NCBI GenBank assembly: GCA_965262365.1 | Contig: OZ253541.1 | Location: 962,292 to 1,026,291 of the forward strand | Direction of reading: 5' to 3' | Length of the DNA stretch: 64,000 nt | Source: Candidatus Rariloculaceae bacterium | GTDB lineage: Bacteria; Pseudomonadota; Gammaproteobacteria; Steroidobacterales; Rariloculaceae | Part shown: one piece after another, positions 4,200 through 21,074 of the stretch | How the letters are laid out: each line of letters starts with the position of its first letter | How positions within the stretch are numbered: the first letter of the stretch is position 1 | Position numbers and translations under genes: made by a program | Notes under the pieces: model-generated | The model's input: the letters and a program-made list of their open reading frames with translations, nothing else | Databases searched by the model: none | Told to the model about the DNA's origin: nothing

Positions 4200-4272
4200 T
4201 CAGCCGGGCGTCATCGGACGGGCTCGCGCGGGCCGGCCGGCACCGAACGCCGGCCGAGCCCGGCGTTGCGTA

Positions 4273-5561
4273 GCAGCGAGTAGCCGATTAACCGCCGGAC
4301 TTTACTGATTTTGGCGAAGACGCGGGAACAGGCGCGCGGCGTTATCCCGTTCGATTAGTACGACGTCTTCCTGGCTTAGTTCGGGAGAGTTTTGCAGCAC
4401 CGTGTCGGACTGCGAGACTAACGACGGCGACGAGATCGGCAAGTCAGTGCCGAATACTACGTTAGATGAATCAACCAGCTTGAGGAGCGCAGCCAGGGAA
4501 TACGGCGACGCTGATTGAGCCGTGCCGTAATAGAGTGTCTTCATGTAATGCAGGATGCCTTCCGGTGCCCGTTCCAATACCTCGGGCGTATTGCGAACAG
4601 CCTGGTCGTCAAGGCGCGCCGCGATATAGGGAGCGGCGCCGCCTGCGTGTGCCGTTATAAATCGAATGTTTGGGTGTCGTTCGATGTTGCCGCTGGTGAT
4701 GAGATTCAGTATCGCACGAGTGGTCTCAAATACGTATTCGATCACGGAGCTTTGAAAATCCAGATTGAGTTCGTTGAAGTAGAATGGGCTGGTCGGGTGC
4801 ATTAAAACGACCGTGTTACGTCGATCCAATTCCTCCATCAGCGGTTCGAGTTCAGGAGCACCAAGATAGACATTGTCGGCGCTGGGGTTCAGTGACATTC
4901 CGTCGAGCCCGAGCGTGTCGAGTGCATAAATCGCTTCGTCAACTGAGGCTTCGGCGTCGTACTGCGGCACCATTGCGAGAGCCCCGAACCTTGTCGGATA
5001 GGACTGTACCAACTCTGCGGCCGCTTCATTGACTACCCGGCAGAGTTCGCTCGACACTCTCTCTCTCGGGTTCCGTACCGACAGCAACCCAGTCTGGATG
5101 TCGAACCGATCCATCAACGACAGCGCCCTTTCCGGTGTCCACTCGCCGCCCGGCCATGCGGCGCCGATGCTTACACCTCGAAAGGCGGTCGTGATCGGAG
5201 GCGGATGCCAGTGATGGTGGACATCGATCCGGCCTGGAGTTTGCGCCCGAGCCAACGGAGTGAGATTTGTAGCCGCGAAACCCGCGACCCCCATACCAGC
5301 CAAGTGAAGTGCATCACGCCGGGTGATCGTATCTGTGCACAGCTTCATCCGCGATAAGCCTCTACTCGGAGAGAAGGTGATTGAAGTTCAACATCGTAGT
5401 ATTCGTAGCAGCGTACTTTTGGATCCGCCGCTTGTAAAGCTGCCGGAGATACTCACGATCCAGTCTCGATGCGGCTGATTCCAGCGCTCCATCGCTTCAA
5501 TCTGAGCCATAGAAATATCGAAGACTTGCTGGCGGAACGGGGTATCACCGTAAGCTACGAA
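4273..5561. repeat. About 1.3-kb direct repeat, copy 1 (amidohydrolase plus IS6 fragment)
   Basis: Near-identical to 22328-23613; the block 5796-5872 also matches about 23614-23689. Confidence 0.95.
4302..5348 (-). CDS. Tat-exported amidohydrolase_2 family protein (aromatic acid decarboxylase/ACMSD-like)
   Basis: RRDAL twin-arginine signal; IDVHHH, LMHP, HAGG, FGTD motifs. Confidence 0.85.
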   Translation of the reverse strand: MKLCTDTITRRDALHLAGMGVAGFAATNLTPLARAQTPGRIDVHHHWHPPPITTAFRGVSIGAAWPGGEWTPERALSLMDRFDIQTGLLSVRNPRERVSSELCRVVNEAAAELVQSYPTRFGALAMVPQYDAEASVDEAIYALDTLGLDGMSLNPSADNVYLGAPELEPLMEELDRRNTVVLMHPTSPFYFNELNLDFQSSVIEYVFETTRAILNLITSGNIERHPNIRFITAHAGGAAPYIAARLDDQAVRNTPEVLERAPEGILHYMKTLYYGTAQSASPYSLAALLKLVDSSNVVFGTDLPISSPSLVSQSDTVLQNSPELSQEDVVLIERDNAARLFPRLRQNQ

Positions 5562-5750
5562 TCGATTCGCCTCTGGTGCATTAAGTTTGAGCCGAAATAT
5601 GCCAAGCGCCTGAGGCGCAGGCATCAGGGATTCGGCGACACGTTTTAATTGGACGAGGTCTTCGTCAAGATCAGGGGCGAATAGCATTATCTGTGGCGGG
5701 CGGTCGGCCAGGATGGGGATGTGGTCGACCTTCTTCTACAGGACCGCAAT
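5491..5750 (+). pseudogene. IS6-family transposase fragment with two nonsense codons
   Basis: HRFNLSHRNIEDLLAERGITVSYESIRLWCIKF...F*LDEVFVKIRGE*HYLWRAV. Confidence 0.85.
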
Positions 5751-5815
5751 TGGCTCCTGCTTCAGTTCATGTCACGGACAGGTACGCCAATAACAGGGCG
5801 GAGCAATCGCACCGC

Positions 5816-5846
5816 AAAAAAACACCCCTTTCGGGGCATTTTTTTT
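5816..5846. terminator. Bidirectional intrinsic terminator-like hairpin
   Basis: A7-CACCCC-TTTC-GGGGCA-T8; second copy at 23634-23662. Confidence 0.7.
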
Positions 5847-5852
5847 GACGAC

Positions 5853-5864
5853 TGGCGGACAGGG
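5853..5864 (-). other. tRNA-Ser 3'-end-like att remnant (CCCTGTCCGCCA)
   Basis: 11/12 identity to the 3' end of tRNA-Ser at 45622; followed on - strand by the terminator; short, so could be chance. Confidence 0.4.
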
Positions 5865-5886
5865 AACCCCTGCGTTGACGGTCACA

Positions 5887-7163
5887 CTAAAGATCCTGAG
5901 GAAGAACAATTCCGAGTTCCAGGCGCGTCTCCCGCCACAACGCAATCATCGATGCCATGCGCTCCGGATACTGAAGGGCCAGATTCCTCGTTTCACCGGG
6001 ATCCACCTCGATATCGAATAGCTGAAACTGTGACTCGTCGAACGGCGGATCGAGGGTCACCAGTTTCCATCTGCCCTGCCGAAGAAGCGCTTTGCCAGCA
6101 TGATATAACGTCGTCACGTAATTTTCGTCGTGAACCTCAGCCTCGGCGCCAGCCAGAAAACCGACCATGCTCTCGCCCAGCATGGGCGCAACCGATCCGT
6201 CGTCCGGGTAAATGGCGCCGCCCAACTCCAGGAATGTCGGCGCCAGATCCATTACAGTGACGTAGGTCGAGTCGATCGTTCCGCTTGACGCGACACCGGG
6301 CCCGGTAGCGATCATCGCCGCAACAATTCCACCCTCGCGCGTAAAGTTCTTATACCGACTGAATGGGGCGGATCCCGCTTCTCCCCAGCGTGCACCATAG
6401 GTAACCCAGGAATTCGCCTTACCCATGTTTTCGTAGCTGTTGTCATAGTGGGCACGCAGATATCGACCGTACGCCGTATCAGAACCGAAATGATCGCTAC
6501 CCGCCGCACCATTGTCCGACATGAAGACGATCAACGTCTTAATGATGCCGGCGGCTTGCAGCGACTCGAACCGCTGCACACGAAGCGCGTCGTAACCAGC
6601 GTCGTATGCTCCACGATACAAATTCAGATAGTCGTCAGGGACCTGTAACGGCCAATGCGGAGAGGTGGAGAGGTATAGGCGGCGTAAGCAAAGAATGGGC
6701 GGCCATCGCCGCGGCCGGATTCAATGAACTCAATCAAGCGATCCGTATAAAGCTCAGTGCTGTAACGACCTTCGGGATAGTCCACCAGATCATCGTCCTC
6801 ACGATATCGAGGTATTTGCTCCGACCTTCCGCGCGCTTGGAAGTGATTGGCGCTTCCGTTCAGAAGCATGAACGAGCGCTCGAAACCTGCCGCTTTCGGA
6901 CTGTGCTTTGCGGTCGCGCCAAGATGCCACTTGCCCGCCGCATAAGTGTGATAGCCCGCATCCCGAAGCAATCTCGGGAATAGCTCAACACGATCCGACA
7001 GATAGCCCTCGTAACCCGCCAAGCTGCTGCGAACCGGACCGTATGCCCCGAGGTCCGCGTAACCCATATCGTCCGCCACAATCAGCAGGATGTTCGGTCG
7101 CTCCTGGGCCGTTGCCGCCATTGACGCGACCAATGTCAGCGCTAGAAAAACGGTTGTTCTCAT
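5887..7163 (-). pseudogene. Arylsulfatase pseudogene
   Basis: Signal plus RPNILLIVADDMG, GKWHLG, MSDNG; the CxPxR region is deleted; frameshift from a short CCTCTCC duplication near 6660; second internal deletion after LQAAGII. Confidence 0.85.
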
Positions 7164-7234
7164 GTTTTCTCTCCCGAATATGCGCCAGCTTGCATATCCA
7201 CAGTTAACCGACAGCTGCTACAGGCCAGAAACGG

Positions 7235-8278
7235 TCATTCGGCGACCGTACATTCGTACGGCTCGATTTCCACGCCTGGGATCCAGACCCAGTACTTCTC
7301 CCTCGTGACCGGCTCGGCAAAGACATCGGGATCTGTAACGGTCACGCGGTAGTTTAAGCGTGTCTGGTCGTCGCTGAGTTCGAATCGCTCCTCGACGATT
7401 GCGGAATCGCTCAACGGAATCGCGGCCGAAAACTGCGGCGCCAGAATCGAGGAGGTCGCGACAACCAAACTGTCCCCGTCCCAACGCCCGGTCGAATAGC
7501 CTAGCGAAGTCGGTTCGCCCGATGCAGGCGCGTTCGTCATGTGGATCACGCGAGTCAGATCGTATTCTTCGATGCGCAAAAGAATTCGCTCTCCCTCGTC
7601 GACGAATTCAATCGGATAAGGCTGCCCCACGATGTGCGGCATGCCTTTCGGTGTACAACCCGGAATCGGGTTATCCGCGATCGGATCGAAGTTCTGTCGC
7701 GCCAGACTCGCTGCGGTGGTCAGCGGATACTCCGACAGACCAATCAGCGAAAGGTTTGAGCCCTGCCGAACGCTGAATGATTCATCTTCATCCCGGCTCC
7801 AGACGCGAAATATGCCAGTCGCTTTCGCTCGGGCTTCATCCAGCGCAATTCCGCTCGTACTCTCTTTCACCCAACCCACGGTCCTGTCGGACCAACGCGG
7901 TTCCGAGTCGCGCTGTATCAATACCTCGCGACCATCGGGGAGCAAGAGATTCTTGGCCTCCATCGCATAGGCATCGAATCTTCCGGGCGTGCCGGCAACC
8001 CGAATGGTCTGCCCAACGCTCAGGATCTCCGGACCGATACCATGCCGCTGGAGCGTTCCTGGCGGCGTCGATTCGATCTCGTAGACCACAGTTTCGCCCT
8101 CTACTTCCGATTCGAGCGAAAACCGTATGTGCGGATTCCGCCAGAGAATCCGAGTGACTGTTCCCTCGATCTCAGCCATTGATTCGAGATCGTAGATCGC
8201 GGCGCGCGAGTGATGCGCGATCGCCACGGGGGCAAGCGCAAATAGCGCCAACGCTGATGTAACTGCCGCTGATCTCAT
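7235..8278 (-). CDS. Secreted DUF6152 plus C-domain fusion protein
   Basis: AIA|HHSRAA, WRNPH, CTPKGMP, GYSTGRWDGD, PYEC; RBS GAGGAG. Confidence 0.85.
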   Translation of the reverse strand: MRSAAVTSALALFALAPVAIAHHSRAAIYDLESMAEIEGTVTRILWRNPHIRFSLESEVEGETVVYEIESTPPGTLQRHGIGPEILSVGQTIRVAGTPGRFDAYAMEAKNLLLPDGREVLIQRDSEPRWSDRTVGWVKESTSGIALDEARAKATGIFRVWSRDEDESFSVRQGSNLSLIGLSEYPLTTAASLARQNFDPIADNPIPGCTPKGMPHIVGQPYPIEFVDEGERILLRIEEYDLTRVIHMTNAPASGEPTSLGYSTGRWDGDSLVVATSSILAPQFSAAIPLSDSAIVEERFELSDDQTRLNYRVTVTDPDVFAEPVTREKYWVWIPGVEIEPYECTVAE

Positions 8279-8323
8279 GTTGAGCTCTCCTCGTTGAAGA
8301 GAAATTGTCGGCACAGGCGAACG

Positions 8324-9796
8324 CTAATGCGCCGTCATCGGCTGATGAGCGCCTTGCGTCGAGCGAATCAGCTGCAGGATCTCCCGGCTGAGTTGCGTGT
8401 CCTGCGTACCGATACTCGGATTCGACGAGAAGTGATCGTGACCGATGAGCTGAACGACACGCGGCATCCGGTCATACCCTGCCGTCAGCTCGTGGACCAG
8501 ATCAGCGAACGATGCTCTGGTCGTCCGGCTATCGTAATCCGAGATCGACAGCAACAAAGGTATGTCGGTGCGTGTGATATTGCCGAGGATCGCGATGTCC
8601 GACCACTGCTCGAAGTCATCGCCGAAGTAGGCTACTCGCCCGTCGGACGGATTATTCGCATCGGCACCGTAGGTGCCGGAGATCAATACGACACCGGCGG
8701 GTGCCGGGCCCGCGTCTGCGGCGATCTCGGGCCTGAGCGCGTATTCCGCAACATGGAATGCACCCGCTGATTTACCGACGACGACGATCTGATTCGGATC
8801 GCCGCCGTAGTCGCCGATGTTATCTCTGACCCAAGCGACGGCTGTCGCCACGTCCTGCGAACCCGCCGGCCACTGCGCGTCCGAGGCGAGCCGATACGTC
8901 GCGTTAACGCCGACGAGACCCAAGCTCGTGAAATAATCTGAAACGTTGCGGCTGTTCGCACGATTGCCGCGCACAAATCCGCCGCCATGGAAGTACATCA
9001 CGACGGGCATCGGGGTGTCGCCGTAACGGTACTTGTCCGTATGGATATCGAGGCGATGTTTTTCGTGCGGCCCGTAGGCGATATCCTGGGCAACCTCGAT
9101 CTCACCCATCTCGTACGTACGCGCCTGGTCGCTATACAGCGCTGCAGTTTCCTGTGCACCGGCGCCGCGGCTCACGATCTCGCGAATTGAAGCTGCTAGT
9201 TCGGGCGGCATGTGGTTACTCAGCGTATCGGCGTTGGTGCGCTCGAGTTCCTCGAGTTCACCCCAGCGGAACTGCGTCAGTGTCGCATCGTGATCGGCGC
9301 AAACCTGAAGATCCGCCTCGCGCGCGTAGTAGACCGGAGAGATCCATGGCGGCGTTCCGGCCAACCGATACTCGTCCTCGATAGTAATGCAGAGATCGGT
9401 ACGAGAGGCCGGACTCACGTTGCCGACGTCACTGATCGTCCAGAGTTGCTCCGGCGCTTCGGCACACTCCTTGATATAAAGCGTACCGTTCGCGCCAAGC
9501 TCCTCGGCGGCCAGGCAGCGATCGAAAGGTGCGGCAAGAATCTGGCCGTTGTCGAGCCACTCCCATTCCTGATCCGTCGCGTCTTCGCCATATTTGCAGG
9601 AATGTAAACGGAGCGGACCGTCGAGATTGATGTCTGGCGTGTGTCCCGGCACGTCGAGACAAAAGCCTCTGAATTCACCGTTGAGTTCGTGCGCCGATTT
9701 AAGGAACGCGCTTTCTGCCGATACGGCCGCGGAAAACCCTATGCCAATCAGAGCGATGGAAAGTGTGCAACTTAAGGAATGGGTCATACCCTTCAT
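8324..9796 (-). CDS. Secreted ricin-type beta-trefoil lectin plus alpha/beta-hydrolase (HGGG-type esterase) fusion
   Basis: CLDV..C..DQEW/CL..C..EQLW repeats; FHGGG, GKSAG nucleophile elbow, C-terminal His (GHDH). Confidence 0.8.
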   Translation of the reverse strand: MKGMTHSLSCTLSIALIGIGFSAAVSAESAFLKSAHELNGEFRGFCLDVPGHTPDINLDGPLRLHSCKYGEDATDQEWEWLDNGQILAAPFDRCLAAEELGANGTLYIKECAEAPEQLWTISDVGNVSPASRTDLCITIEDEYRLAGTPPWISPVYYAREADLQVCADHDATLTQFRWGELEELERTNADTLSNHMPPELAASIREIVSRGAGAQETAALYSDQARTYEMGEIEVAQDIAYGPHEKHRLDIHTDKYRYGDTPMPVVMYFHGGGFVRGNRANSRNVSDYFTSLGLVGVNATYRLASDAQWPAGSQDVATAVAWVRDNIGDYGGDPNQIVVVGKSAGAFHVAEYALRPEIAADAGPAPAGVVLISGTYGADANNPSDGRVAYFGDDFEQWSDIAILGNITRTDIPLLLSISDYDSRTTRASFADLVHELTAGYDRMPRVVQLIGHDHFSSNPSIGTQDTQLSREILQLIRSTQGAHQPMTAH

Positions 9797-9884
9797 TTCG
9801 ATTCCCTCATCAATTATCAATTTCGGCGGCCAGGAGATACTCATGCTAAGCCAACTACCCCGGCCAAATCTTTTCTCTCAGGAG

Positions 9885-10886
9885 TTAGTACAGGACGCGG
9901 GAGGCCACATCCGGATCGCAGGTATTGGGCAGCATTTGCATATCCGGCGCATGAGCCCAGGTAGTCGAGCCCGTAACGGGCTCCGTCAGATACTCCGAAT
10001 CCTCGTACATGTATTCAATCTGTACGTTTCTGCCGTCTTCGCTGAGCGTATATCGCTCGACGGCATGACGGCCCAGGCCGGAGGGGATGCCGCGGCCATT
10101 GCCCCAGCGATGCTCCTCGAAGCCGACCGTATCGACAGCGAGCGTGTCTCCCTCCCACCAGCCGATCGAATGACCCTGATTGCTCGGCGTGAGATCCGCC
10201 GGGTGTTCGCGGCTGTCCATGTAGACGGTGCGTGTGACCTCGTTGTACTCGGCTTTCAGAAGAATGACGTCGTCGAGGATCTCGACTTCGTGCAGGTAGG
10301 GCCCGCCCATGTTGCCGGGCGGCATACCGTAGATGCACTCAGCCATCGGGTTGTCGTTCTCACTGTATTCCGCGGCTGCCGCGACCGCCTTCTCCGTCAG
10401 CGGCAGATGCGTGGCCGCCCTGTCGCGCGGCCCGGCGCCCCTCCAGCTCGCGTTCGACCAGACGCCGACGAGACTCTCGGCGGACGGCACGTCGTCAGCG
10501 GGGCCACGGGCCTGGCCCTGCGATGACAGCGTGGTGCCATCCGCTTTCGTGTAGGTCATGCCGAACAACAGTCTGCGCTCGGGGTTTTTGTCAGGATTGG
10601 CGCGGATCGTGATGACGTCGCCGACGGCGAGCGAGTCACGGCTCCAGCCGCGGCGCACCAACCCCATCGTCGACTGCATCTCGACTTCCCATTCCGTCAT
10701 GACGCCGTTCGCGTCCGGCGCTTCGATATAGGCGTAGACATGTGGATTGACCCACTCCCAGCGCGTGACCACCGCTTCGAATGCGATGACTTCATCGGAG
10801 AAGTTGGCGCGTGAGTGATGGGCTATTGCGGGCACGAATGCGGACGCGAGCGCAAGTCCGCAAACAATCGATATGCTGCTTTTCAT
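9885..10886 (-). CDS. Secreted DUF6152 plus C-domain fusion protein
   Basis: AIA|HHSRAN, WVNPH, ECIYGMP, GHSIGWWEGD, terminal Cys. Confidence 0.85.
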   Translation of the reverse strand: MKSSISIVCGLALASAFVPAIAHHSRANFSDEVIAFEAVVTRWEWVNPHVYAYIEAPDANGVMTEWEVEMQSTMGLVRRGWSRDSLAVGDVITIRANPDKNPERRLLFGMTYTKADGTTLSSQGQARGPADDVPSAESLVGVWSNASWRGAGPRDRAATHLPLTEKAVAAAAEYSENDNPMAECIYGMPPGNMGGPYLHEVEILDDVILLKAEYNEVTRTVYMDSREHPADLTPSNQGHSIGWWEGDTLAVDTVGFEEHRWGNGRGIPSGLGRHAVERYTLSEDGRNVQIEYMYEDSEYLTEPVTGSTTWAHAPDMQMLPNTCDPDVASRVLY

Positions 10887-10908
10887 TCCGGTTCCCCTCC
10901 TCGGCACG

Positions 10909-11994
10909 TTACCGCACCTTGTCATGCCAAACCGCCTGATTCGGTCGGATATTGTTCTCGCCGCTAAGCTCTACACAGCCGTACGGCTCGTAAGGCGCGG
11001 AAGACAGCGCCTGAAAGTCCTGGCCGCGAATGATGGACTCGATGAACAGCGGATCCTCGATCGTGTAGTCGCGAGTCAGCACGAGCTCCTCGGGGTCCAC
11101 GCGGAACCGTTCCACGAGATGCATCTGATCGCTATGCGCCGTCCCATCCCGATGCGCGAGCACACCCTGCTCGAAACCGATCGTATCAACGACCAGCGTG
11201 TCGTGCTCCCACCAGCCGATCGAGTGTCCGCCCGCGCTTGGGGTGATGTCATCAGGGCGTTCGCTCGTGTTCAGGTGAATCGTGCGCACGAAATCCATGA
11301 AGCCGTATTGCAACGTGATCTCGCCCTCCGCCTGATAGATATCGTTGACGTGGCGGTCGTGATTCCAGCCGTTGATGACATTGTAGACATGACATCGCAG
11401 AATGGGATCGTCGAAGGCCATCTCGTAGCCTTCGCGCGCCGCGAGGCCGGCCGCAGTCGGCACGGCGGAATCGCGGAATCCGCGGCTCGAGCCCATGCCG
11501 AAAGAGAGCGTGACCCAGGGCCCTGTCAGATTCGGTTGACCATTGTCCAGAAATGCCGCACGCGCTAACCCGGACGTATCCAGGTAACCCGTCGTCACGA
11601 CTCCGTCCTCGAATTCGGAGTTGCGCGCGAATTCGGGACCTCCATCGAGGCGAAAGTTGCTCATGTAGCAAACATGATCCTCGCGACGCGCCGGCGATCC
11701 CGTGATCTCGATGTACTGACCAGGCTGGAACGTGTCCTTCGTCCATCCACGGCGCCGAAGCGTCGTGGCAGCAGAAAGTTCGCAGCGCCAATCCTGGATG
11801 GTGCCGTCGTCCGCCGTCACATCGAAATAGACGTAGGCATGGGGATTGACGAAACTCAGCTCCGTCACGACGCCCTCGACCGTGATCGGATTGTCGAGAT
11901 CGAAATGCGGATCCGAAGAGTGATGGGCACCGGCTGCCGCAGATATCGCGACGCCCGCTGCCGCCAGCCAGCATCGTCGAGCACGATAGTTCAT
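10909..11994 (-). CDS. Secreted DUF6152 plus C-domain fusion protein
   Basis: AGA|HHSSDPHFD, FVNPH, WRCEL, GHSIGWWEHD, PYGC. Confidence 0.85.
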   Translation of the reverse strand: MNYRARRCWLAAAGVAISAAAGAHHSSDPHFDLDNPITVEGVVTELSFVNPHAYVYFDVTADDGTIQDWRCELSAATTLRRRGWTKDTFQPGQYIEITGSPARREDHVCYMSNFRLDGGPEFARNSEFEDGVVTTGYLDTSGLARAAFLDNGQPNLTGPWVTLSFGMGSSRGFRDSAVPTAAGLAAREGYEMAFDDPILRCHVYNVINGWNHDRHVNDIYQAEGEITLQYGFMDFVRTIHLNTSERPDDITPSAGGHSIGWWEHDTLVVDTIGFEQGVLAHRDGTAHSDQMHLVERFRVDPEELVLTRDYTIEDPLFIESIIRGQDFQALSSAPYEPYGCVELSGENNIRPNQAVWHDKVR

Positions 11995-12094
11995 AAGGTC
12001 TCCTAATCTAGACTGCAGTACAAGCTATAACAAGGAAAAGAAATGCTCCGACATGCGTTCGCGAATAGCCGGATCGGGGAAGCATCAGTCCGTA

Positions 12095-13675
12095 TTACAG
12101 ATCGCTCGACAGCTCTTCACCGAAGTCGACAGGGGCATTCGCCTCTTTACCGATATGAGTCCATTCGTCGATCAGACGCGTGTAGATCTCCGGGTAGCGC
12201 AGCGAGAGATCCGTCGTCTCGCTCGGATCGTCTCTCAGATTGTAGAGCTCCCAGCTACCTGAGCCGCGCGGTGGATTGCCACGCACTAACTTCCAGTCAC
12301 CGCGATAGAAGGCGGAGCTGTACCACGTCCCCACACTGCTATCGTCGTGAACGACGGCCTCACTGCCGTGCAGGAGACTCAGAAATGAGCGACCACGAGC
12401 AGGCAGCACACTACGTCCCTCATACTCAGTACCCGGATGTGCGGAACCGGCCATTTCGAGGAACGTGGGCATCAGGTCCATCACGGTCAAGAACTCATTG
12501 TTCAAACCGCCTTTGTTCGCCAGCGATTCGTGATAAACGAACGCGGGCACACGCAGCCCTCCCTCGAGCTGCGTACCCTTGTTCCACTTGAACGGTGCAC
12601 TGATCGAGTCTCCCCAGCTCCAGGTCGAGACGTATGAACCAGGTTTCCCGAGGTTTTCGTAGCTGTTGTCGACTTCCTCGTCAATGGTCCGAATCGATAC
12701 ATCGGCGCCGTTATCGGAAGAAAACACTATGATCGTACTATCGAACTGCCCCGATTCCCGAAGGTAGAGAATGAGCCGGCCGACGTGGAAATCCAGATTC
12801 TCGACCATGGCTGCGTGGAGTTCCATCTTCCGGGATTCGACGCGTTGCTCCTTCTCGGTATATTCGGACCACTCGGCGCTGCGCGTGTAATTCTCTAACG
12901 AGAAGCCTCCAGGCAGCACACCCATCTCGCCAGCCCGCTGTACCCGTCGTCGGGTCAACTCGTCATAACCCTGGTCGTAGACGCCGTCGTATCGATGCAG
13001 ATAATGGTCGGGCACCTGCATTGGCCAGTGAGGCGAAGTTGGCGTGTACCATGCGAAGAAGGGCACGCCGTCGCCCTCGTTCTCCTGCAGATACTCGATC
13101 ATTCTGTCGGTGTAGTAACGCGTCGAGTAGAAGTCTTCGGGCAAAACGACTTCCTGACCATTCTCCAGATACCGTCCCGGGCGAGTATCCAGAAAATGCT
13201 TTGCGGCACCGCTCATCAGAACGAAGGATGAGTCGAAACCTCTTGTTGCGGCGTTATCCTCCGTGCCGTTACCGACATGCCATTTGCCCGACATGTACGT
13301 GTGGTACCCGGCATCCTTCATCAACTGGGGCAATGCGACGACATTCGGTACAAGGGCCCGGTTGTTTCCGATACCGGTCGGCGTAGCGCCTACTTCGGTG
13401 TAGGTTCCGCTCAACAGCATGGTGCGTGTCTGCGAACACGCGGGTCCGACATGGTAGTTGGTGAGTCGAACACCACCGAGTGCTAATGCATCCAGGTTCG
13501 GAGTACGAATTTCCGATCCGAAAGAACCTATATCGGTATACCCCATATCATCCGCCATTATCAGCAGGATGTTGGGCCGATCGCTTTCCTGAGCGGAAGC
13601 CGATGGCGCTGTCAATAACCCAAGAAGGACGAAGACGCCCCCGAGTAGCACCGCCAAGTTCGCATTTTTAGTCAT
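12095..13675 (-). CDS. Arylsulfatase (Cys-type, non-canonical CSQTR motif)
   Basis: RPNILLIMADDMG, ACSQTR, GKWHVG, TSPHWP, SSDNG, WELYNL; start moved to MTKNANL. Confidence 0.9.
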   Translation of the reverse strand: MTKNANLAVLLGGVFVLLGLLTAPSASAQESDRPNILLIMADDMGYTDIGSFGSEIRTPNLDALALGGVRLTNYHVGPACSQTRTMLLSGTYTEVGATPTGIGNNRALVPNVVALPQLMKDAGYHTYMSGKWHVGNGTEDNAATRGFDSSFVLMSGAAKHFLDTRPGRYLENGQEVVLPEDFYSTRYYTDRMIEYLQENEGDGVPFFAWYTPTSPHWPMQVPDHYLHRYDGVYDQGYDELTRRRVQRAGEMGVLPGGFSLENYTRSAEWSEYTEKEQRVESRKMELHAAMVENLDFHVGRLILYLRESGQFDSTIIVFSSDNGADVSIRTIDEEVDNSYENLGKPGSYVSTWSWGDSISAPFKWNKGTQLEGGLRVPAFVYHESLANKGGLNNEFLTVMDLMPTFLEMAGSAHPGTEYEGRSVLPARGRSFLSLLHGSEAVVHDDSSVGTWYSSAFYRGDWKLVRGNPPRGSGSWELYNLRDDPSETTDLSLRYPEIYTRLIDEWTHIGKEANAPVDFGEELSSDL

Positions 13676-13737
13676 TCGCCGAATACTCCGAGTAGTTCGT
13701 TTGGCTTTCCAGCTACAGCTAGAACTCGAATAGCGCA

Positions 13738-14760
13738 TTAGTTCGTGCAGTCGAAAGGTTCGATAGTCATCGCCGATAGCCATAGCCAGCTCTTATCGAG
13801 CACGACCGGCTCCGTGAACGTCGCCGGGTCGGTGATCGTCAATGTGTAATCGAGGCGGCCGCCGTCTTCCTGCAGTGAAAATGTCTCGACCGTTTCAACG
13901 GAGTCGCTAAGCGGAATACCGCTTGTATTGAAATGCGGCCAGCTAATACCCGTCGTCTCGGCAATCAGGATATTCCCTTCCCAGCGCCCGACTGAATAGC
14001 CGAGTGGTCGGGACTCTGCCCATTCCGGCTCGCTGCCATCCAGGTAGATCGTACGTACGGTGTCGTATTCCTCCAGCATCAATACGACATTGCCGTCCCT
14101 CTCCAGGATCTGCATCGGATAGGGCTGCCCCATTATCGTCGGCATACCTTTCGGTGCGCAGTTGAGTGTTGGCGCGTCCGTTGCAGGATTGAACGCCTCA
14201 GCGGCTGCTTCCGCCTGTGCCGTCAGTGGATAGCTTGTGTTCCATAGTCCGCCGAGACCGCCACTGTTAATCGGCGTGCTCCAGACACGGAAGATTCCGA
14301 GATCCGGACGAGAGCTGTCACCCGCAGCACCGAATCCCGGCCCGGTTGTGCCGAGCGCTTGTTCGGACCATCTCGGGCCATCGTTGCCCAGAACAATCTC
14401 GCTGCGATTCGGCGTAAGCAGATTGCGTACGTACATCTGATTAGATCCGTCCTTCGCGGGATTGCCCGCTACTCGAACGGTGTCGCCGACATCGATCCGC
14501 AGATCGCTAACTCCACGCCGGCGCAAAGTGGTCAACGAGGTCATCTCGATATCCCACTGCTCAATTCGATCGCTTCCGTCCGCGGCCGTGATCGAAAAAC
14601 GAACGTGGGGATTACGCCAGAGCAAGTTTGTCACAACGCCCTCAGCTTCGACCAGCCGACTCGTGTCGAACGTTCCAGCAACACTGTGGTGCGCGGTCGC
14701 GACGAACGGCAAAAGCGCCGCAGCGCTCACGAAACCTAAACGTCGCACGACATCGTTCAT
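13738..14760 (-). CDS. Secreted DUF6152 plus C-domain fusion protein
   Basis: ATA|HHSVAGTFD, WRNPH, CAPKGMP, GYSVGRWEG, PFDC. Confidence 0.85.
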   Translation of the reverse strand: MNDVVRRLGFVSAAALLPFVATAHHSVAGTFDTSRLVEAEGVVTNLLWRNPHVRFSITAADGSDRIEQWDIEMTSLTTLRRRGVSDLRIDVGDTVRVAGNPAKDGSNQMYVRNLLTPNRSEIVLGNDGPRWSEQALGTTGPGFGAAGDSSRPDLGIFRVWSTPINSGGLGGLWNTSYPLTAQAEAAAEAFNPATDAPTLNCAPKGMPTIMGQPYPMQILERDGNVVLMLEEYDTVRTIYLDGSEPEWAESRPLGYSVGRWEGNILIAETTGISWPHFNTSGIPLSDSVETVETFSLQEDGGRLDYTLTITDPATFTEPVVLDKSWLWLSAMTIEPFDCTN

Positions 14761-14763
14761 GCG

Positions 14764-14814
14764 TTACTCGACGCACTCGAAGAGCTGAACCGATTCACCG
14801 GGACGCCACAGCCA
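14764..14814 (-). pseudogene. Last 16 codons of another DUF6152-type C-domain gene
   Basis: WLWRPGESVQLFECVE* resembles paralog ends (WVWIPGVEIEPYEC); stop is 3 bp before the next ATG. Confidence 0.6.
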
Positions 14815-15029
14815 GGGGGTCACAGGCCCCGTATCCTATCATGATGATATCCGGATTCTCGGCCTACATGAATCTTTCCAGATCCACCATAGCCTGAAGC
14901 ACGGCCATTGAAAGCTCTTTGCCTTCGGGAGGATTCTCAATGAAGACATCGGGTCCGCCCAAGCCGATAACGGGCATGAGAAAAAACCGGAATTGCCAAG
15001 CAATTAATTGTCACTTTGAAGAGACAAGC

Positions 15030-15939
15030 CGACCAGCCATCGGCTGGTCGGCTCGGTTCCGGGCCCTGATCCGGCGGATCCGTTGCAAACAGGTTGTAGA
15101 CTGAAAGTGCGACGCTCGATCCTTATAGGCTTCGTTTAGCCCGTCGCGGTAGCGCGTAACGACGCGGAAGTTATTGACGTTGAGCATCACAGGGAAAATA
15201 CCCTGCCAGTGCGGCATGCTGGTTACACCATTAAAGCCCATTCCGAGTTGGCGGCCAATCGCGCTGCAGACTCCCTCAGGCGGCGGGCAGAGGCCGTCGC
15301 GACCCCCGACCTCCCCGACCGGAAAGTCGTACTGCAGCGTGAAGGTCACGGCCGGGTTGAACGACAACGGGCCAAGAGGCGTATCGAAACGCATGTTGGC
15401 GTGCAGATCGAGGAACTGCGTGTTGACATAGCCGATGTTCACCGGCGAGTTGAGCAGCGTCGCGATATTATTCCTCGTCGTGTCAAGAATGCCGTCGCCA
15501 TTGACGTCAAAGTAGAGGGACGGATCGCTGTCGACTACCTTCCCGACGCACTTGGAGCCGTCGGGGCCGACTACTGGATACATCAGGGATCCCATCGACC
15601 CCCCGGTCTGTGTAATCGGGATGCCGTTGGCATCTCGAACATAGCACTGCGAGAGAACATTGTTCGCCGTCGTCGAGACGATCAGATCATTGAACTCGAT
15701 CTGCACGAAGCTACCGCCCACGCTGATGTTGTCGTTAAAGACAAAGTCTGCGCCGAACGTCAGGTTATCCGAGGTCTGCGGCTCCAGGGCCGCGTTCGGC
15801 CGTGAGATGTAAATAATCCGACGCCGGCACCCGTGTAGAGATACGAGCCGGTGACGACCACTTCTTCCAGAGAGGCGTCTTCCTCATGTTCAACCTTATC
15901 GATAGTGCCAAATTCTGTTGCTCTATTACAACAAGACAT
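15030..15939 (-). pseudogene. Internally deleted paralog of the TonB-dependent receptor at 17723
   Basis: SLEEVVVTGSYLYTG joined to IYISRPNAALEPQTSDNL...YRDGLNEAYKD, then out of frame GSSVALSVYNLFATDPP. Confidence 0.9.
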
Positions 15940-16096
15940 GGCTGACCTCTATTTGATGCTAGTAACAATCGTTCGAAGCTGCTATGGCGACTTCCTTCCT
16001 TTTTTCTACCCTTTTTCCACTCCGCTTCCGAGACGCAGATCTCTCTCCTATTAAAACACCCCAATTTGTCCGACTAGGGCTGACGCCGAACAAAAG

Positions 16097-16594
16097 CTAT
16101 AGTGGACTCGCGCTCGCGACTACCGTTGTAGTAGCCAAGTCAATCACGAACAATCGTGAGATGGAAAACGGGCCACTTTGTGGATTCTGTAGCTCCGGCA
16201 ACGCGCCTATATCCGGCACTGCCGTTGGCGTTCCCGAAGAGGCACCAGAGACTGAGGCACGCACTTCGTAGTGACTACCCGCGTACGCATTGAAGCACAA
16301 TTCGGATACCATAGAGTCCATCGTGGAAGTCGTAGCGCGCGCCTCTATGCAAACCCCGCGAGGCATCACTCGGATTCTACGGCTCGTCACTCGGACGGGT
16401 TCGCCACGAGCGTCATCAGCCGAAAGGATACGTGTTCTTGCTGCTGTCCGGTCGTTCGACGCGCGTGGGACGCTGATCAGTACGGTCTCACTATCGGACA
16501 TTGCTGGCCCGTAATACAACTGTTGTGGTCCGCTTGCGCATGAGGCCAATGCCAGACAGAACGTCATGGCAACAACGGAATTCATCGATCTCAT
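16097..16594 (-). CDS. Hypothetical lipoprotein
   Basis: Lipobox LASC after hydrophobic stretch. Confidence 0.6.
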   Translation of the reverse strand: MRSMNSVVAMTFCLALASCASGPQQLYYGPAMSDSETVLISVPRASNDRTAARTRILSADDARGEPVRVTSRRIRVMPRGVCIEARATTSTMDSMVSELCFNAYAGSHYEVRASVSGASSGTPTAVPDIGALPELQNPQSGPFSISRLFVIDLATTTVVASASPL

Positions 16595-16645
16595 GTCTAA
16601 TCCCTATAGTGGCAAAGCTGTCTCTAAACTCTACTCCAGAGTTAG

Positions 16646-16870
16646 CCCGGATATCTCACCAAAAAATGGAATGGGACCTCGCGAGGTGGTGGCGCGATTC
16701 GACGCCGGGCATCTGACGAGCGACGGCGGAGCCCTGTTGCTGCGGGAGGCGGACCTTCGGTTGGATTTGACGCGCCGGATCGCGGCGTGTTTCGCCGACG
16801 GGCGCCAGAGCGGGCGGGTCGAACACGGCGTGGAGGAGTTGGTGGCGCAACGGGTGCACGGGTTGGCGAA
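16646..16870 (+). mobile_element. IS1380-family remnant (left end plus transposase fragment)
   Basis: REVVARFDAGHLTSDGGALLLREAD...RVEH; 39 bp (16643-16681) identical to 20760-20798. Confidence 0.8.
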
Positions 16871-16911
16871 GGGGTCGAGGCTCCCGGCTCGGCCCTCAGG
16901 AGTCCGCGCGG

Positions 16912-17382
16912 GTGGCCGACTCGATTGCTGGTTACTGGTCAACGACCTCGGACGGTAGCTGGATCATCGACCGCCAGAACGCCGTGTGGAGTGGTCCGCG
17001 CGGGATCGGCGCCGATTGGCGTGACCCCTGGTCCGCAGCATTCGTCTCCTGGGTCATGTGTGAGAGCGGCCTCGGCGATGCCAATCGATTTCAGCGCGCC
17101 ATCGCCCACCATCGGTATATTAATCAGGCGATCGAAGCGCGCGGCGACAAGCCCTCACAGGCTGCGTTCGTAGCCTACGACGTCGGCGAGTTCTCAATCG
17201 AACCCGGCGATCTGCTCTGCTCGGCGCGACGGTCAGCTTATCGGTCGATTGAGGAGCGACGGAAGGATCTCGGCAATGGCGTACGCACTCACTGCGACAT
17301 CGTGATGAAGGTGGATGCGGCGAACGATCGAATTCTCGCCATCCGGTGGGGATGGACGCACTCGAGCACACTCCGACCATGA
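16912..17382 (+). pseudogene. DUF2272 (CHAP-like) protein fragment
   Basis: PWSAAFVSW, EPGDLLC, THCDIV; N-terminus missing and C-terminus aberrant. Confidence 0.7.
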
Positions 17383-17722
17383 GAGCCCTAAGGGAACGCG
17401 GTCACAGCTTGGACTGGCTACCGCTCGACTGACTCGAGTCGTCCGCGTGCCTCGTACCCCGAATGGCATTCGATTTTTTTCGCTTCTCGCCGCGATAATT
17501 CGAAATAGATACTTACGCTTACCATCGGATCAATTCTGCAAAGGTTCGCTAACCCCTTCATAAACCATGAAATAATGACCACTCGAACCCACTCCGGCAT
17601 CTGTGTCGCAGCATTGAAACGCCTGGGCCACTCGCGTACCATACTATCGGAATACTTGTAGCGCTCGCGCAACAGAAGAGCATCGCTTCAGACATGCACT
17701 GCACACCATAGGGGACTCAGTA

Positions 17723-20700
17723 ATGTTCGAATCTGGCAAACTTTCTTACAGTGCCATCGTCGGCACTTGCATCGCGGCACTCTCCCTCCCGCTCCAGGCT
17801 CAGGAAGATCAGGGCGCGGAGTTGGAGGAGATCGTCGTCACCGGCTCCTTTCTCTACACCGGCATCGACTCGCCGTCACCGGTTTCGGTGCTTTCGGGCG
17901 AGGACATGGTGGCTTACGCGCCACCCGATCTCGTCAGCTTCTTCATCAACAACGTTCCGCAGAACTTCGAGGACGATATCGGCAGCCAGATCGAAAATGA
18001 TGGCCAGAGCCGGGCGCGTTCGGACCGTAACGCGACGATCAATCTGCGCGGTCTCGGAGATATGAACACGCTCGTCGTGCTGAACGGGCGTCGCACAATC
18101 TCCTATCCGAGCCCGACCGGCACCGGCTGGTACCGCACCGCGATCAACTCGCTCGTGCCGCGGATTGCGGTGCAGCGGACCGAGCTGTTGCTCGACGGCG
18201 GCTCGGCCACCTTCGGTTCCGACCCGGTGGCCGGCGTGGTTAACTTCGTCACTCGCAACGACTTCCGCGGCTTCGACATGAGTATCAACAGTCGGACGCT
18301 GACAGAGGCTCCCGATGCCAAGAACGCGAGCGTTTCAGCGATCTTCGGCGCCGGTACCGATGACACGAGCATCATCGTGGCCATGGAGTTTCACCAGGAG
18401 GATCTGGTTGAGGTCATCGACGTCTCTCCGGAATTCGACGCCTTCCAGGCGAACCCCGACGTCACGTACCAAACGGGCTACGGGCTCGAAGCTAACGAAA
18501 CCCTGGAGTATCGCAACGCGGGGGGCGGCGCCCGATACGTCGATCCCGACTGCGGCAACCCGGCCTTCGGCGGACCGTTTTTTGCGGGTTGGCTCATAGA
18601 CGATCAGCCGCTTGTGCTGGACTCCGCGGTGGAAGTGTCCGACTACGCGTCTGCTACCGCCTGTGGGCGGCCGTACGACAACGGCCTTTTTGACGACGCC
18701 GGCAGGCTGCTCAACAACAATGTCAAACAAATCAACCTATTCTCCCGCGCCGAGCACCACTTAAGCGATGCGTTGCGGGTCAACGCCGAGATCGGCTACA
18801 GCCGCCAGCGATACGACGACATCGATCAGTGGGGCGACAACGGTTCCCAAGGATGGCTCATAGAACAGAACGCACTGGGCCCCGAGTTCGCGATTCCGGC
18901 CAACCATCCGGGCCTGGTCCGCGCACAGACGCTACGGCCGGGTTTCGGCATGGGCCAGCCCGTCTACGCCCGCGACGAGACGCTGCCGTTTCTGAGTGAG
19001 ATGCCCGCGTTCAGTCAAAACGATCTGTTCCGCGCAGCGTTCGGCGTCGAAGGCGACATCAATTCCAACTGGACATGGCTGCTCGACGGTTCTGCCCAGT
19101 ACAGCGATCTCCGCGCTGGCGTCCGTGACGTGGTCCTCGACCGCTATTCGCCGGCCATCAGCGGGCTGGGTGGACCGGACTGTCTCCCAGCCACCGGGAC
19201 ACCGGGCATGGGCGAGTGTTACTTCTACAATCCGTTCATGAGCTCGGCGCTGCCTGATGCGGCATCGCGGCAAACGAATCTCTCCCAGACCGGTCTAACC
19301 AACCACCCGGATCTGCTGGGCTGGCTGATTCCGTTGCGCACGGATGTTTTCGAAGGCGAGCTCTTCACCCTGGACGCGCGCATCACGGGCCAGTTCGGCG
19401 ATTTGCCGGGCGGGCAGATCGGTCTCGCCGCCGGCATCGCTTACCGCGAAGAAGAGGTCGGGCGCGATGCCGACGCCATGGTCAATGCCGGCGAGATGGC
19501 CACGCTCGGCGTCTTTAACGACTTCCGCGGCAGCCAACAAGTGAATTCGGTGTATTTCGAGCTGGCCTTGCCGGTCCACGAGGACGTCAATGTCCAGGTC
19601 GCCGGACGCCAGGAAGAGTACGACATTGGCTTCAGCGAGTTCTCACCGAAGATTGCCGCGCTCTGGACGCCGACCGATCGGTTGACGCTGCGTGCTTCCT
19701 GGGGTACCTCGTTCAAAGGGCCTTCGATCAGCCAATCGGCGGCGGAGACGATCTTCACCGGCATGGGCCCGCCGCGCACAACCGTCAGCGGTATGACATA
19801 TGGCATGGGTCCCGGCACTGGGTTCATTTATATTTCGAAGCCGAACTCGGCCCTCGATCCCCAGACGTCGGACAACATCTCGTTTGGCGCCGACTTTGTC
19901 GTCAACGACCGGATCAGCGTGGGCGCTAGCCTCGTACAGATCGACATCGAGGATCTGATCGTCTCGACGACGGCGAACAATGTGCTCTCGCAATGCTACG
20001 TTCGCGATGCCAACGGCATCCCGTTCACGCAGACCGGAATGAGCAATGCCTCGCTCATGTATCCGGTCGTCGGCCCCGACGGCTCCAAGTGCGTCGGTAC
20101 GGTGATCGACACTGATCCGTCCCTCTACTTCGATGTCGATGGGGATGGCGTTCTCGACACGACCCGGCAAAATATCGCTACGCTGCTCAACTCGCCGGTG
20201 AACATCGGTTATATCGACACGCAGTTCTTCGATTTGAATGCCAACATGAACTTCGATACACCGATAGGCTCATTGAACTTCCGACCCTCCCTGACCTTCA
20301 CGCTGAAGTACGACTTCCCGCTCGGGGATATCGGGGGTCGCGACGGTCTGTGCAGCGACGGCGTCTGTAGTGGGATCGGCCGTAGCTTCGGCATGGGTTT
20401 CAACGGTGTAACGGACATGCCCCACTGGCAGGGGGTCTTCCCCGCGACGCTCAACGTCAACAACCAAGACATTCGCGTTGTTGCGCGCTACCGCGACGGG
20501 CTGAACAACGCCATTGAGGATTTGCCGCAAGATGAGTTCCTGACTGCCAGGTGGGAACGCGACGAGGGTCAGTTGACGATCGACGTCAATTGGGCCTACC
20601 GGTTCAACCAGGGATCGAGCGTTGCGCTTTCGGTCTACAACCTGATTTCTTCGGATCCGCCCGCTCAGGACGCTCAGCGTTTCAACCAGCGTAGACGTGA

Positions 20701-20740
20701 GATCGGCCTTCAGTTCCGGCACTCGTTCGACTCCAGCTGA
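17723..20740 (+). CDS. TonB-dependent receptor
   Basis: Signal peptide, TonB box ELEEIVVTGS, plug NLRGLG..TLVVLNGRR, DGGSATFGSDPVAGVVNF; 1005 aa. Confidence 0.92.
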   Translation: MFESGKLSYSAIVGTCIAALSLPLQAQEDQGAELEEIVVTGSFLYTGIDSPSPVSVLSGEDMVAYAPPDLVSFFINNVPQNFEDDIGSQIENDGQSRARSDRNATINLRGLGDMNTLVVLNGRRTISYPSPTGTGWYRTAINSLVPRIAVQRTELLLDGGSATFGSDPVAGVVNFVTRNDFRGFDMSINSRTLTEAPDAKNASVSAIFGAGTDDTSIIVAMEFHQEDLVEVIDVSPEFDAFQANPDVTYQTGYGLEANETLEYRNAGGGARYVDPDCGNPAFGGPFFAGWLIDDQPLVLDSAVEVSDYASATACGRPYDNGLFDDAGRLLNNNVKQINLFSRAEHHLSDALRVNAEIGYSRQRYDDIDQWGDNGSQGWLIEQNALGPEFAIPANHPGLVRAQTLRPGFGMGQPVYARDETLPFLSEMPAFSQNDLFRAAFGVEGDINSNWTWLLDGSAQYSDLRAGVRDVVLDRYSPAISGLGGPDCLPATGTPGMGECYFYNPFMSSALPDAASRQTNLSQTGLTNHPDLLGWLIPLRTDVFEGELFTLDARITGQFGDLPGGQIGLAAGIAYREEEVGRDADAMVNAGEMATLGVFNDFRGSQQVNSVYFELALPVHEDVNVQVAGRQEEYDIGFSEFSPKIAALWTPTDRLTLRASWGTSFKGPSISQSAAETIFTGMGPPRTTVSGMTYGMGPGTGFIYISKPNSALDPQTSDNISFGADFVVNDRISVGASLVQIDIEDLIVSTTANNVLSQCYVRDANGIPFTQTGMSNASLMYPVVGPDGSKCVGTVIDTDPSLYFDVDGDGVLDTTRQNIATLLNSPVNIGYIDTQFFDLNANMNFDTPIGSLNFRPSLTFTLKYDFPLGDIGGRDGLCSDGVCSGIGRSFGMGFNGVTDMPHWQGVFPATLNVNNQDIRVVARYRDGLNNAIEDLPQDEFLTARWERDEGQLTIDVNWAYRFNQGSSVALSVYNLISSDPPAQDAQRFNQRRREIGLQFRHSFDSS

Positions 20741-20762
20741 TGCCGCTCTGAAACGAGTCTAG

Positions 20763-20950
20763 CCCGGATATCTCACCAAAAAATGGAATGGGACCTCGAT
20801 TTGTCGGATAATGTGAGTTAGTTCAATCACTTACATTAGACCGACGGAGAGGTCCCATGGCGACACGGTGTACCCCGACACAACTTCCATTTCATCCCTT
20901 CGGACGTCGCGAGGTTCCCGGCGCCCAATATCTATACGAGAAGTTGTACT
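20763..20950 (+). mobile_element. IS1380-family remnant, internally deleted
   Basis: CCCGGAT end, MATRCTPTQLPFHPFGRREV joined to QYLYEKLYC. Confidence 0.75.
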
Positions 20951-21074
20951 GCGGGCCGAACCGGCCCGCGCTTCCTCCGCAGCTGCAGACATCCCGAGGC
21001 AAGGCCATACCTGGAGATCGGTCGTTGCGTGCCACCAGCGCGACAGAGCTGTGACAGCGCAGACGCTCTCGGCC

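Follow-up and report, generated by a model that had tools for sequence, protein, structure and literature searches.

The 64-kb stretch of contig OZ253541.1 analysed here (the window), from the uncultured marine gammaproteobacterium Candidatus Rariloculaceae bacterium, contains a mobile-element-scarred remnant of a TonB-receptor-led operon. The remnant occupies the minus strand from position 14760 to position 5887, where genes for exported hydrolases stand among genes for DUF6152-long (hereafter D), a fused protein of two modules, namely a DUF6152 module with an OB fold and a C-terminal barrel module. The analysis showed D to be a Sec-exported, non-lipidated, two-module protein. TonB-receptor-led hydrolase operons are already well known, and the locus is notable mainly for exposing this unstudied two-module periplasmic family. 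Our preferred interpretation, a tentative one, is that the D proteins are ligand-handling partners of the adjacent exported hydrolases and act on small amphipathic esters.

About 50 open reading frames (ORFs) across the window were scanned with Pfam, paralogues were located by tblastn and by hidden Markov models (HMMs) of the N- and C-domains of D, and repeats were located by self-blastn. By the Pfam and paralogue searches, the run comprises, in transcription order, D1 (13738-14760; PF19649, 68.1 bits, against a gathering threshold of 27 bits), sulfatase-1, an exported AtsA-type arylsulfatase (12095-13675, the likely start, in an ORF extending to 13783; PF00884, 175.7 bits), D2 (10909-11994; PF19649, 80.2 bits), D3 (9885-10925, likely start 10886; PF19649, 79.2 bits, and the HMMs), an exported family IV (HSL-type) carboxylesterase with a Ricin_B_lectin domain (8324-9844, likely start 9796; Pfam), D4 (7235-8314, likely start 8278; PF19649, 54.8 bits, and the HMMs) and sulfatase-2 (5887-7163), a pseudogene of two ORFs (6624-7163 and 5887-6621) with fragments of the Pfam Sulfatase and SGSH_C domains. 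D1 to D4 are all fused DUF6152-long genes; D4 is 40% identical to D1, and D2 is 40% identical to D5, a further fused copy in the window. With the likeliest start codons, the intergenic gaps measure 62, 100, 22, 88, 45 and 71 bp, and are compatible with a single transcript. A scan for promoters and terminators returned sites fewer than, or no more than, those in shuffled sequence and was uninformative on transcription units. The original prediction had described a co-oriented run with gaps of about 3-100 bp, containing no glycoside hydrolase or lyase. The run is real and lies on the minus strand, but it is shorter and more damaged than was claimed, and its gaps range from 22 to 100 bp. The absence of such enzymes was borne out, since no glycoside hydrolase (GH) or polysaccharide lyase (PL) domain was found by Pfam in the ORFs scanned across the window. 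No SusD/RagB match was found in any of them either, and the only sugar-related domain among them was the Ricin_B lectin on the esterase.

The gene at the head of the run, taken in the original prediction for a DUF6152 remnant, is an internally deleted and frameshifted pseudogene of a TonB-dependent receptor (TBDR). This former lead gene, TBDR-2 (15066-15897, minus strand), lies directly upstream of D1 on the same strand, and was delineated by tblastn with the intact receptor of the window, TBDR-1. Residues 25-47 are encoded at 15897-15829 and residues 702-982 directly after them, in a frameshifted stretch at 15814-15066; the identity to TBDR-1 is 76% over residues 702-933. TBDR-1 (17723-20740, plus strand; Pfam Plug and TonB barrel) is the sole intact receptor. 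It lies on the strand opposite to the run, in a strain-specific insert of 4.07 kb (16682-20754, plus strand) that is bounded by 44-bp direct repeats (16639-16681 and 20755-20798). The domain scan identified a DDE transposase fragment at the start of the insert (16566-16958) and a DUF2272 fragment within it (16912-17382). The adjacent receptors that had been predicted therefore amount to a relic at the head of the run and a gene that has been relocated.

A 4.55-Mb metagenome contig from a sister strain (L001), with 98-99.5% DNA identity to the window, keeps the order D5, D1 (3' half), sulfatase-1, D2, D3 and esterase. It lacks the window segment 16682-20754 that holds TBDR-1, and it lacks D4 and sulfatase-2, the homology stopping at window position 8231. 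An insertion sequence (IS) is present between D1 and the sulfatase. The TBDR-2 lesion in L001 is a different one, in which the end of the Plug domain is fused to the 3' half to two-thirds of D1 (P0019, 399 aa). The receptor-D1 junction was destroyed independently in L001, and the operon is decaying independently in both strains; the different lesions, together with the shared gene order, therefore indicate an ancestral unit led by TBDR-2. Its order was TBDR-2, D1, AtsA-type sulfatase, D2, D3 and lectin-esterase, followed in the window by D4 and sulfatase-2. In L001, the Plug::D1 fusion gene and a following DDE transposase gene occupy 10001-12607. A small predicted lipoprotein ORF with the lipobox LASC and no Pfam match (16097-16594, minus strand) sits in the window between the TBDR-2 relic and the inserted segment, and is kept in L001 with 98.6% DNA identity.

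Sulfatase-1 has a signal peptide and matches the Pseudomonas aeruginosa arylsulfatase AtsA (PAS; 1hdh, 4cxs) over its full length (residues 31-507, E = 1e-107). On this similarity, it is classed as an enzyme of the aryl-sulfate type and not as a known carbohydrate sulfatase. Its maturation motif, near ORF residue 110, reads C-S-Q-T-R, with glutamine replacing the proline or alanine of the C/S-x-P/A-x-R pattern. The same motif is present in the 99% identical L001 orthologue, and the orthologue in a distant genome (L020) reads CAPTR. Sulfatase-1 may thus be poorly matured or inactive. Sulfatase-2, which had been listed as the last gene of the run, lacks about 55 residues relative to sulfatase-1 and PAS, including the formylglycine cysteine motif. 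It is also frameshifted near 6654-6675, where the ORF frames differ and the tblastn pieces overlap, and is dead. The esterase carries an N-terminal beta-trefoil (Ricin_B_lectin, E = 7.9e-10) and an Abhydrolase_3 domain (E = 2.7e-20), with a BD-FAE match. It has an HSL-type fold with the oxyanion motif YFHGGGF and the nucleophile elbow GKSAG, and it matches the PDB esterase 4zrs (E = 3e-50).

The D proteins are 340-400 aa in length, of which the Pfam DUF6152 model spans no more than the first ~100 residues, about a third of the protein. In an alignment of 48 sequences, the invariant residues were H24, H25, N50, P51, H52 and R81 in the OB module and W160, C201, R236, E292 and C338 in the barrel module, which also has a conserved G-x-S-x-G-x-W motif. 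Most of these positions were 99-100% conserved in a wider set of 107 sequences, with R81 at 93% and D311 at 98%; this set was anchored on the His-His motif, so that H24 and H25 are 100% by construction. Approximately 18 positions, including H, H, N, H, R, R, E and D, are invariant among paralogues that are only 25-40% identical. The Asn-Pro-His motif lies 26 residues past His-His in most sequences (range 24-31). A hydrophobic signal sequence precedes His-His, which in 110 of the 111 instances directly follows A, G or S; this indicates signal-peptide cleavage at this point and points to His-His as the predicted mature N-terminus after cleavage of the signal-peptidase-I type. As there is no lipobox cysteine at the predicted cleavage site, the D proteins are not lipoproteins.

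AlphaFold2 gave a confident two-domain model of D1 (pLDDT 86.8, pTM 0.82), and the barrel modelled alone had a pLDDT of 87.5. The N-module matched OB folds in Foldseek, including Stn1, the LysRS anticodon domain and single-stranded DNA-binding proteins. The C-module was modelled as a helix-capped barrel of 8-10 strands with a fold closest to the fatty-acid and retinoid binding proteins. All 50 of the listed Foldseek matches were intracellular lipid-binding proteins, including CRABP2, CRBP1, FABP3/4/5/7 and myelin P2, with target-normalised TM scores of 0.46-0.63 (0.50-0.63 for the top 25, and 0.55-0.63 for most of the top matches). The resemblance seen in the model is at the level of the fold only and does not imply family membership. 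The C-module and nine stand-alone C-module proteins had no Pfam match even at E <= 1. It consists of ~190 aa, has extra helices and is exported, and a C201-C338 disulfide is likely.

The two modules also occur apart. In a sample of 81 loci from other genomes (1.34 Mb, in which ORFs were called and then clustered), there were 108 fused genes, 22 C-only genes, 12 OB-only genes and one C-C tandem; 80 of the loci come from a one-genome-per-species collection, in which some genomes contributed more than one locus, and the 81st is L001. The separate C-module genes encode their own signal peptides, and the OB-only genes correspond to the 'classical' short DUF6152. Adjacent split pairs were found seven times in the other loci, in both gene orders, and once in the window (360-1561). 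As the modules are either fused or encoded by adjacent, separately exported genes, they act together in the periplasm. The family is large, with 26,193 clusters at 50% identity for E <= 1e-3 and 13,182 for E <= 1e-10, and it is multiplied in individual genomes of uncultured heterotrophs from marine, sediment and soil settings. Of the 81 loci, the majority belong to uncultured Gammaproteobacteria (Ca. Rariloculaceae, Woeseiaceae), Rhodospirillaceae and Acidobacteriota. Near-identical D proteins were noted in a 'Proteobacteria' metagenome-assembled genome (MAG; L010, 6393-7397) and in a 'Dehalococcoidia' MAG (L011, 10010-11014), which suggests either faulty binning or recent transfer, and Dehalococcoidia records of the family need care.

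No relative of the D proteins was found in a profile search of PDB sequences, and no model for them in NCBIfam. Literature searches returned nothing on DUF6152, on PF19649 or on a histidine brace combined with an OB fold, and only incidental mentions of Rariloculaceae. The operon is thus built around a large family with no literature, NCBIfam model or solved relative, whose invariant histidine pair at the predicted mature N-terminus provides a simple and directly testable biochemical hypothesis. If its members serve exported sulfatases, esterases and lactonases as ligand-handling or catalytic partners, they would represent a missing piece in the processing of sulfated and acylated organic matter by these heterotrophs.

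The association between D genes and their neighbours was assessed across the 81 loci. Immediate neighbours were defined as co-oriented genes separated by a gap of <200 bp (n = 108), and the controls were 108 genes of the same loci, each removed from a family gene by four genes or more, so that the enrichment background is local and not genome-wide. The immediate neighbours belonged to 84 Pfam families altogether and included eight sulfatases, eight metallo-beta-lactamase (MBL)-fold proteins, six Abhydrolase_10 and five Abhydrolase_11 proteins, six TBDRs, three SGL lactonase-like proteins, three NHL proteins and three pyrroloquinoline quinone (PQQ) dehydrogenases, with alpha/beta hydrolases accounting for approximately 15. 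Among the controls, none of the enriched families reached two members, except for MBL (two). Eight of the ten sulfatases in the 81 loci were immediate neighbours of a family gene, where ~10% adjacency is expected (Fisher odds ratio 38, p = 3.6e-7). The result held when an orthologous module of sulfatase, D and Abhydrolase_10, present in five species, was counted once (p = 1.2e-3). The predicted enrichment of DUF6152 near sulfatases and TBDRs therefore holds. The partnership with sulfatases is enriched but not specific, as MBL-fold proteins, alpha/beta hydrolases, lactonase-like propellers and PQQ dehydrogenases take part as well, and only ~6% of the family genes abut a sulfatase. The association is real, and it concerns exported ester/amide hydrolases and receptors generally instead of being peculiar to sulfatases. 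More than one subfamily is represented among the partner sulfatases, with the motifs CSQTR/CAPTR (AtsA-like), CNPSR and CGASR, and their D partners are spread over several clades.

Receptors were adjacent to and co-oriented with family genes in six loci, compared with none in the control set. The distant L020 genome has the order TBDR, D, sulfatase, MBL, D, an unassigned gene (x), sulfatase, D, and so keeps the succession of receptor, D and AtsA-like sulfatase at ~50% protein identity to the window; receptor followed by D was also observed in L016, L034 and L039. A receptor-like ORF was present within 10 kb in only 20 of the 81 loci. RPE65-type carotenoid/stilbene cleavage oxygenases were noted within 10 kb of D genes (18 copies in eight loci, for example L042 16592-18985), and 12 loci had PQQ dehydrogenases and 15 had NHL propellers. 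The RPE65, PQQ and NHL neighbours hint at hydrophobic or aromatic substrates.

A partner role for D beside hydrolases is plausible, and a possible mechanism can be outlined. The TonB receptor would admit small amphipathic esters, for example acyl esters and sulfates of an aryl or lipid-like kind. In the periplasm, the FABP-like barrel of the D protein would accommodate the hydrophobic portion of substrate or product, and a metal ion at the putative N-terminal His-His/NPH site may take part in binding or in the chemical step. The hydrolase encoded beside D would then remove the sulfate or acyl group, working with the D protein, and different D paralogues would serve different pairs of enzyme and substrate. 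In this strain the system would already be decaying, with TBDR-2 and sulfatase-2 dead and the maturation motif of sulfatase-1 doubtful. Sulfated or acylated glycans and sulfated aromatics had both been put forward as substrates. The case for glycans is weakened by the AtsA-like sulfatase-1 and the barrel resembling small-lipid binders, and small substrates of an aromatic or lipid-like kind that carry sulfate or acyl groups probably fit better.

Several observations weigh against this interpretation. The ricin-type lectin domain on the esterase is the sole hint of a sugar-containing substrate, which is possible. The binding of metal and ligand by D is putative, and the N-terminal metal site serves as a lead only; the alpha/beta-hydrolase partners need no metal, and the many invariant polar residues look more enzyme-like than carrier-like. 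The Foldseek matches of the C-module are weak, with E values of 2.4e-4 or weaker (~1e-4 to 1e-3), 14% identity and an rmsd of ~6 A. Between 5.9 and 22.3 kb, Pfam revealed neither a regulator nor an inner-membrane transporter. Across the sampled loci, no hydrolase partner was identified for ~60% of the family genes, and 44 of the 143 are next to another family gene. The loci were selected via a single conserved peptide pattern and are a partial sample of the family, and their neighbouring genes come from a crude longest-ORF caller.

The enzyme-like pattern of invariant residues raises the possibility that the D proteins are themselves the missing bond-cleaving enzymes, a new metal-dependent and possibly oxidative family with an N-terminal histidine that replaces the glycoside hydrolases of polysaccharide utilization loci (PULs), with the sulfatases and esterases as helpers. 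Behind a receptor gene, D genes alternate with those for sulfatases and esterases much as GH genes do in the arrays of PULs, no GH or PL domain was found in the window, and the sugar-binding domain on the esterase and the extent of invariance among divergent paralogues would also fit. The predicted mature N-terminal histidine is, in addition, a hallmark of histidine-brace copper enzymes (PMC10952591). However, the combination of an OB and an FABP-like fold has no counterpart among known histidine-brace enzymes, the D proteins lack a carbohydrate-binding module, and the sulfatase is of the aryl type. Neighbours such as PQQ dehydrogenases, RPE65 oxygenases, BKACE, AMP-ligases, SnoaL and cupins suggest small-molecule metabolism, and we regard this explanation as unlikely. 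A broader form, in which DUF6152 and the barrel would constitute a new and very large periplasmic metalloprotein family with an N-terminal histidine on an OB fold, catalytic and perhaps oxidative, which attacks recalcitrant sulfated and acylated organic matter and fills the role of PUL glycoside hydrolases in marine Gammaproteobacteria and Acidobacteriota, appears less probable still. The original prediction itself corresponds to a PUL-like system in which DUF6152 proteins would, in the manner of SusD, capture sulfated or acylated glycans as partners of the receptor. Such a role could account for the receptor that heads the operon here and in the four other loci named above, for the enrichment of receptors among direct neighbours (6 vs. 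0) and for the lectin domain of the esterase. It agrees poorly with the D proteins themselves, which lack a lipobox and are predicted to be cleaved at A-HH, have an OB and FABP-like fold in place of the helical fold of SusD, and gave no SusD match in Pfam. Most D genes are not beside a receptor, few loci have a receptor within 10 kb, and D genes number one per hydrolase, not one per receptor. With an AtsA-like sulfatase and no carbohydrate-active enzyme (CAZyme) present, the SusD-like role is judged improbable, and that part of the prediction is not supported.

A further explanation would have the D proteins serve as maturation factors, metallochaperones or inhibitors of the adjacent exported metallo-hydrolases, with the N-terminal histidine delivering or blocking the active-site metal. 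There are precedents, as the N-termini of TIMP and AprI reach the zinc of proteases; TIMP is an OB-fold inhibitor that acts through its N-terminus, and CusF is a periplasmic OB-like metallochaperone. The ratio of one D gene per enzyme and the many metal-dependent partners (sulfatase, MBL, amidohydrolase, SGL and PQQ dehydrogenase) are in keeping with this role, which was nonetheless ranked low because many partners, approximately 15 of the 108, are metal-free alpha/beta hydrolases. A single invariant motif is also unlikely to suit active sites this diverse, an enzyme neighbour is lacking for many D genes, and the conserved FABP-like barrel would be left unexplained; we therefore place little faith in it. 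Finally, D genes and exported hydrolases may have no functional coupling, both having expanded and accumulated in the same plastic regions. The region is indeed rich in IS scars, duplications and pseudogenes, and the diversity of Pfam families among the direct neighbours and the frequent adjacency of D genes to one another point in the same direction. Against this stand the sulfatase adjacency, far above its expected level, the short gaps between co-oriented genes, and the preservation of gene order at the divergence of L020 and, for the module of sulfatase, D and Abhydrolase_10, across five species. A complete lack of coupling is thus rather improbable, and the ligand-handling partnership remains our preferred, if tentative, interpretation.

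In comparison with known systems, the locus resembles the PULs of Bacteroidota (SusC/SusD with CAZymes and sulfatases or esterases) in that a TonB receptor leads co-oriented exported hydrolases and one family recurs. It differs in the absence of a SusD-like lipoprotein and of any GH or lyase, in its gammaproteobacterial host, in the OB and FABP-like nature of the recurring family, and in the aryl type of its sulfatase. The 'CUT' loci of Xanthomonas are TonB-receptor-linked catabolic loci, and the ats/sft clusters of Pseudomonas combine AtsA with the TonB receptor SftP, so that the uptake of small sulfate esters via a TonB receptor has a precedent there. Such loci likewise place a receptor beside periplasmic degradative enzymes, and sulfatase-1 is a close full-length relative of AtsA. 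A receptor gene that precedes exported degradative enzymes in the same orientation was found for the TBDR-2 relic, for the Plug end in L001, and in L020, L016, L034 and L039. In contrast to CUT-like and ats/sft loci, the run contains no inner-membrane transporter or regulator, its enzymes have signal peptides, and the D family is not described there.

The intracellular lipid-binding proteins (FABP, CRABP and CRBP, of the calycin superfamily) were the only consistent structural match of the C-module, although it shows no sequence relationship to them and no Pfam lipocalin or FABP match. The C-module is, moreover, exported, probably disulfide-bonded through C201 and C338, extended by additional helices and coupled to an OB module. 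The invariant R236 may correspond to the carboxylate-binding arginine of FABPs. The OB-like periplasmic copper/silver chaperone CusF would be alike as a small periplasmic OB-type barrel in which a few conserved side chains hold a metal, but has other ligands (His/Met/Trp) and neither the N-terminal histidine, the second module nor the hydrolase partners of D. N-terminal histidine metal sites and the histidine brace, as in lytic polysaccharide monooxygenases, CopC and PmoB, have been defined (PMC10952591), and YcnI (DUF1775), a mono-histidine brace, is a precedent for a DUF family proving to be such a protein (PMC8424229). The D proteins would share with them an invariant histidine, predicted as residue 1 after signal cleavage, and the further invariant histidine of NPH is a candidate ligand. 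The fold of D is, in contrast, OB and not an Ig-like sandwich, and there are two consecutive N-terminal histidines.

The window contains six fused copies of the family, a split pair and a further copy truncated at the window end, and given that copy count, its richness in DUF6152 is not a matter of chance. The PF19649 scores of D1-D6 (54.8-80.2 bits), the OB-only gene (54.7 bits) and the partial D7 (41.7 bits) all lie above the threshold. The copies are only 26-41% identical to each other, and the duplications are therefore old. D5 (21075-22280, likely start ~22196, minus strand; 76.6 bits) has 99.3% DNA identity to its counterpart in L001. D6 (59947-61077, likely start ~60037, plus strand; 62.4 bits and the HMMs) is preceded by a Vgb-lyase/SGL-like beta-propeller gene (58496-59737, plus strand; Pfam Vgb_lyase, E = 9.6e-37, and SGL), which also showed a weak N-terminal match to the c-type cytochrome subunit SorB (E = 2e-4), and is convergent with an Amidohydro_1 gene (61085-62437; Pfam). 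D7 (63577-64000, plus strand) is represented by its N-terminal part, with GHHS and NPH motifs. A LysR regulator gene (62627-63583; Pfam) lies just before D7; no LysR gene was found in the run.

The split pair consists of an OB-only DUF6152 gene with A-HHG and FPH (1166-1561, minus strand, 131 aa; N-domain HMM E = 2.8e-18) and a stand-alone C-module gene (360-1154, minus strand, 264 aa; C-domain HMM E = 1.5e-25, no Pfam match). The interpretation of 360-1561 as a frameshifted DUF6152-long pseudogene was rejected, as the two ORFs are intact and each has its own signal peptide. As predicted, sulfatases also flank DUF6152 genes outside the run. Directly downstream of the split pair is sulfatase-0 (3-308, minus strand, start ~308), of which the N-terminal part with a signal peptide, starting MKYLSKV, was detected by tblastn with sulfatase-1 residues 16-96 (41% identity); the gene continues past the left end of the window. 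The second is a 34-aa sulfatase relic (LLPDAGYATYTAGKWDIG...RGFD) near D6 (59811-59912, minus strand; tblastn E = 1.7e-4). A non-coding repeat of 84 bp, 83% identical between its copies, lies upstream of sulfatase-0 (257-340) and of the OB-only gene (1613-1696), and the second copy is beside the relic of a Fic domain (HPFDDGNGR; ~1700-1900, minus strand).

The whole 16.4-kb block (5874-22320) is bracketed by direct repeats that measure 1.4-1.6 kb and have ~1.4 kb in common, at 98% identity. Copy 1 (4268-5873) abuts the 3' end of the run and contains an intact Amidohydro_2 gene (4302-5348, minus strand; Pfam), and copy 2 (22321-23689), directly upstream of D5, contains the same gene (22357-23401, minus strand) with a frameshift near 23100. 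By self-blastn, 4268-5561 aligned with 22321-23613 at 98.5% and 5795-5873 with 23613-23689 at 97.5%, copy 1 being longer by an additional 233 bp (5562-5794). The repeats may stem from a duplication, from recombination or from an assembly issue. Beyond the bracketed block lies a ~20-kb mobile and defence island (23794-45000). It contains HipB/HipA (23794-25669), an IS integrase (25888-26910), a Sel1 protein, AbiEi/AbiEii (30814-32572), a truncated phage-type integrase (33115-33900), an AAA_21/DUF4435 ATPase (34428-36044), two DDE transposases (36267-38054 and 41461-42885) and a PD-(D/E)XK nuclease (38605-39381).

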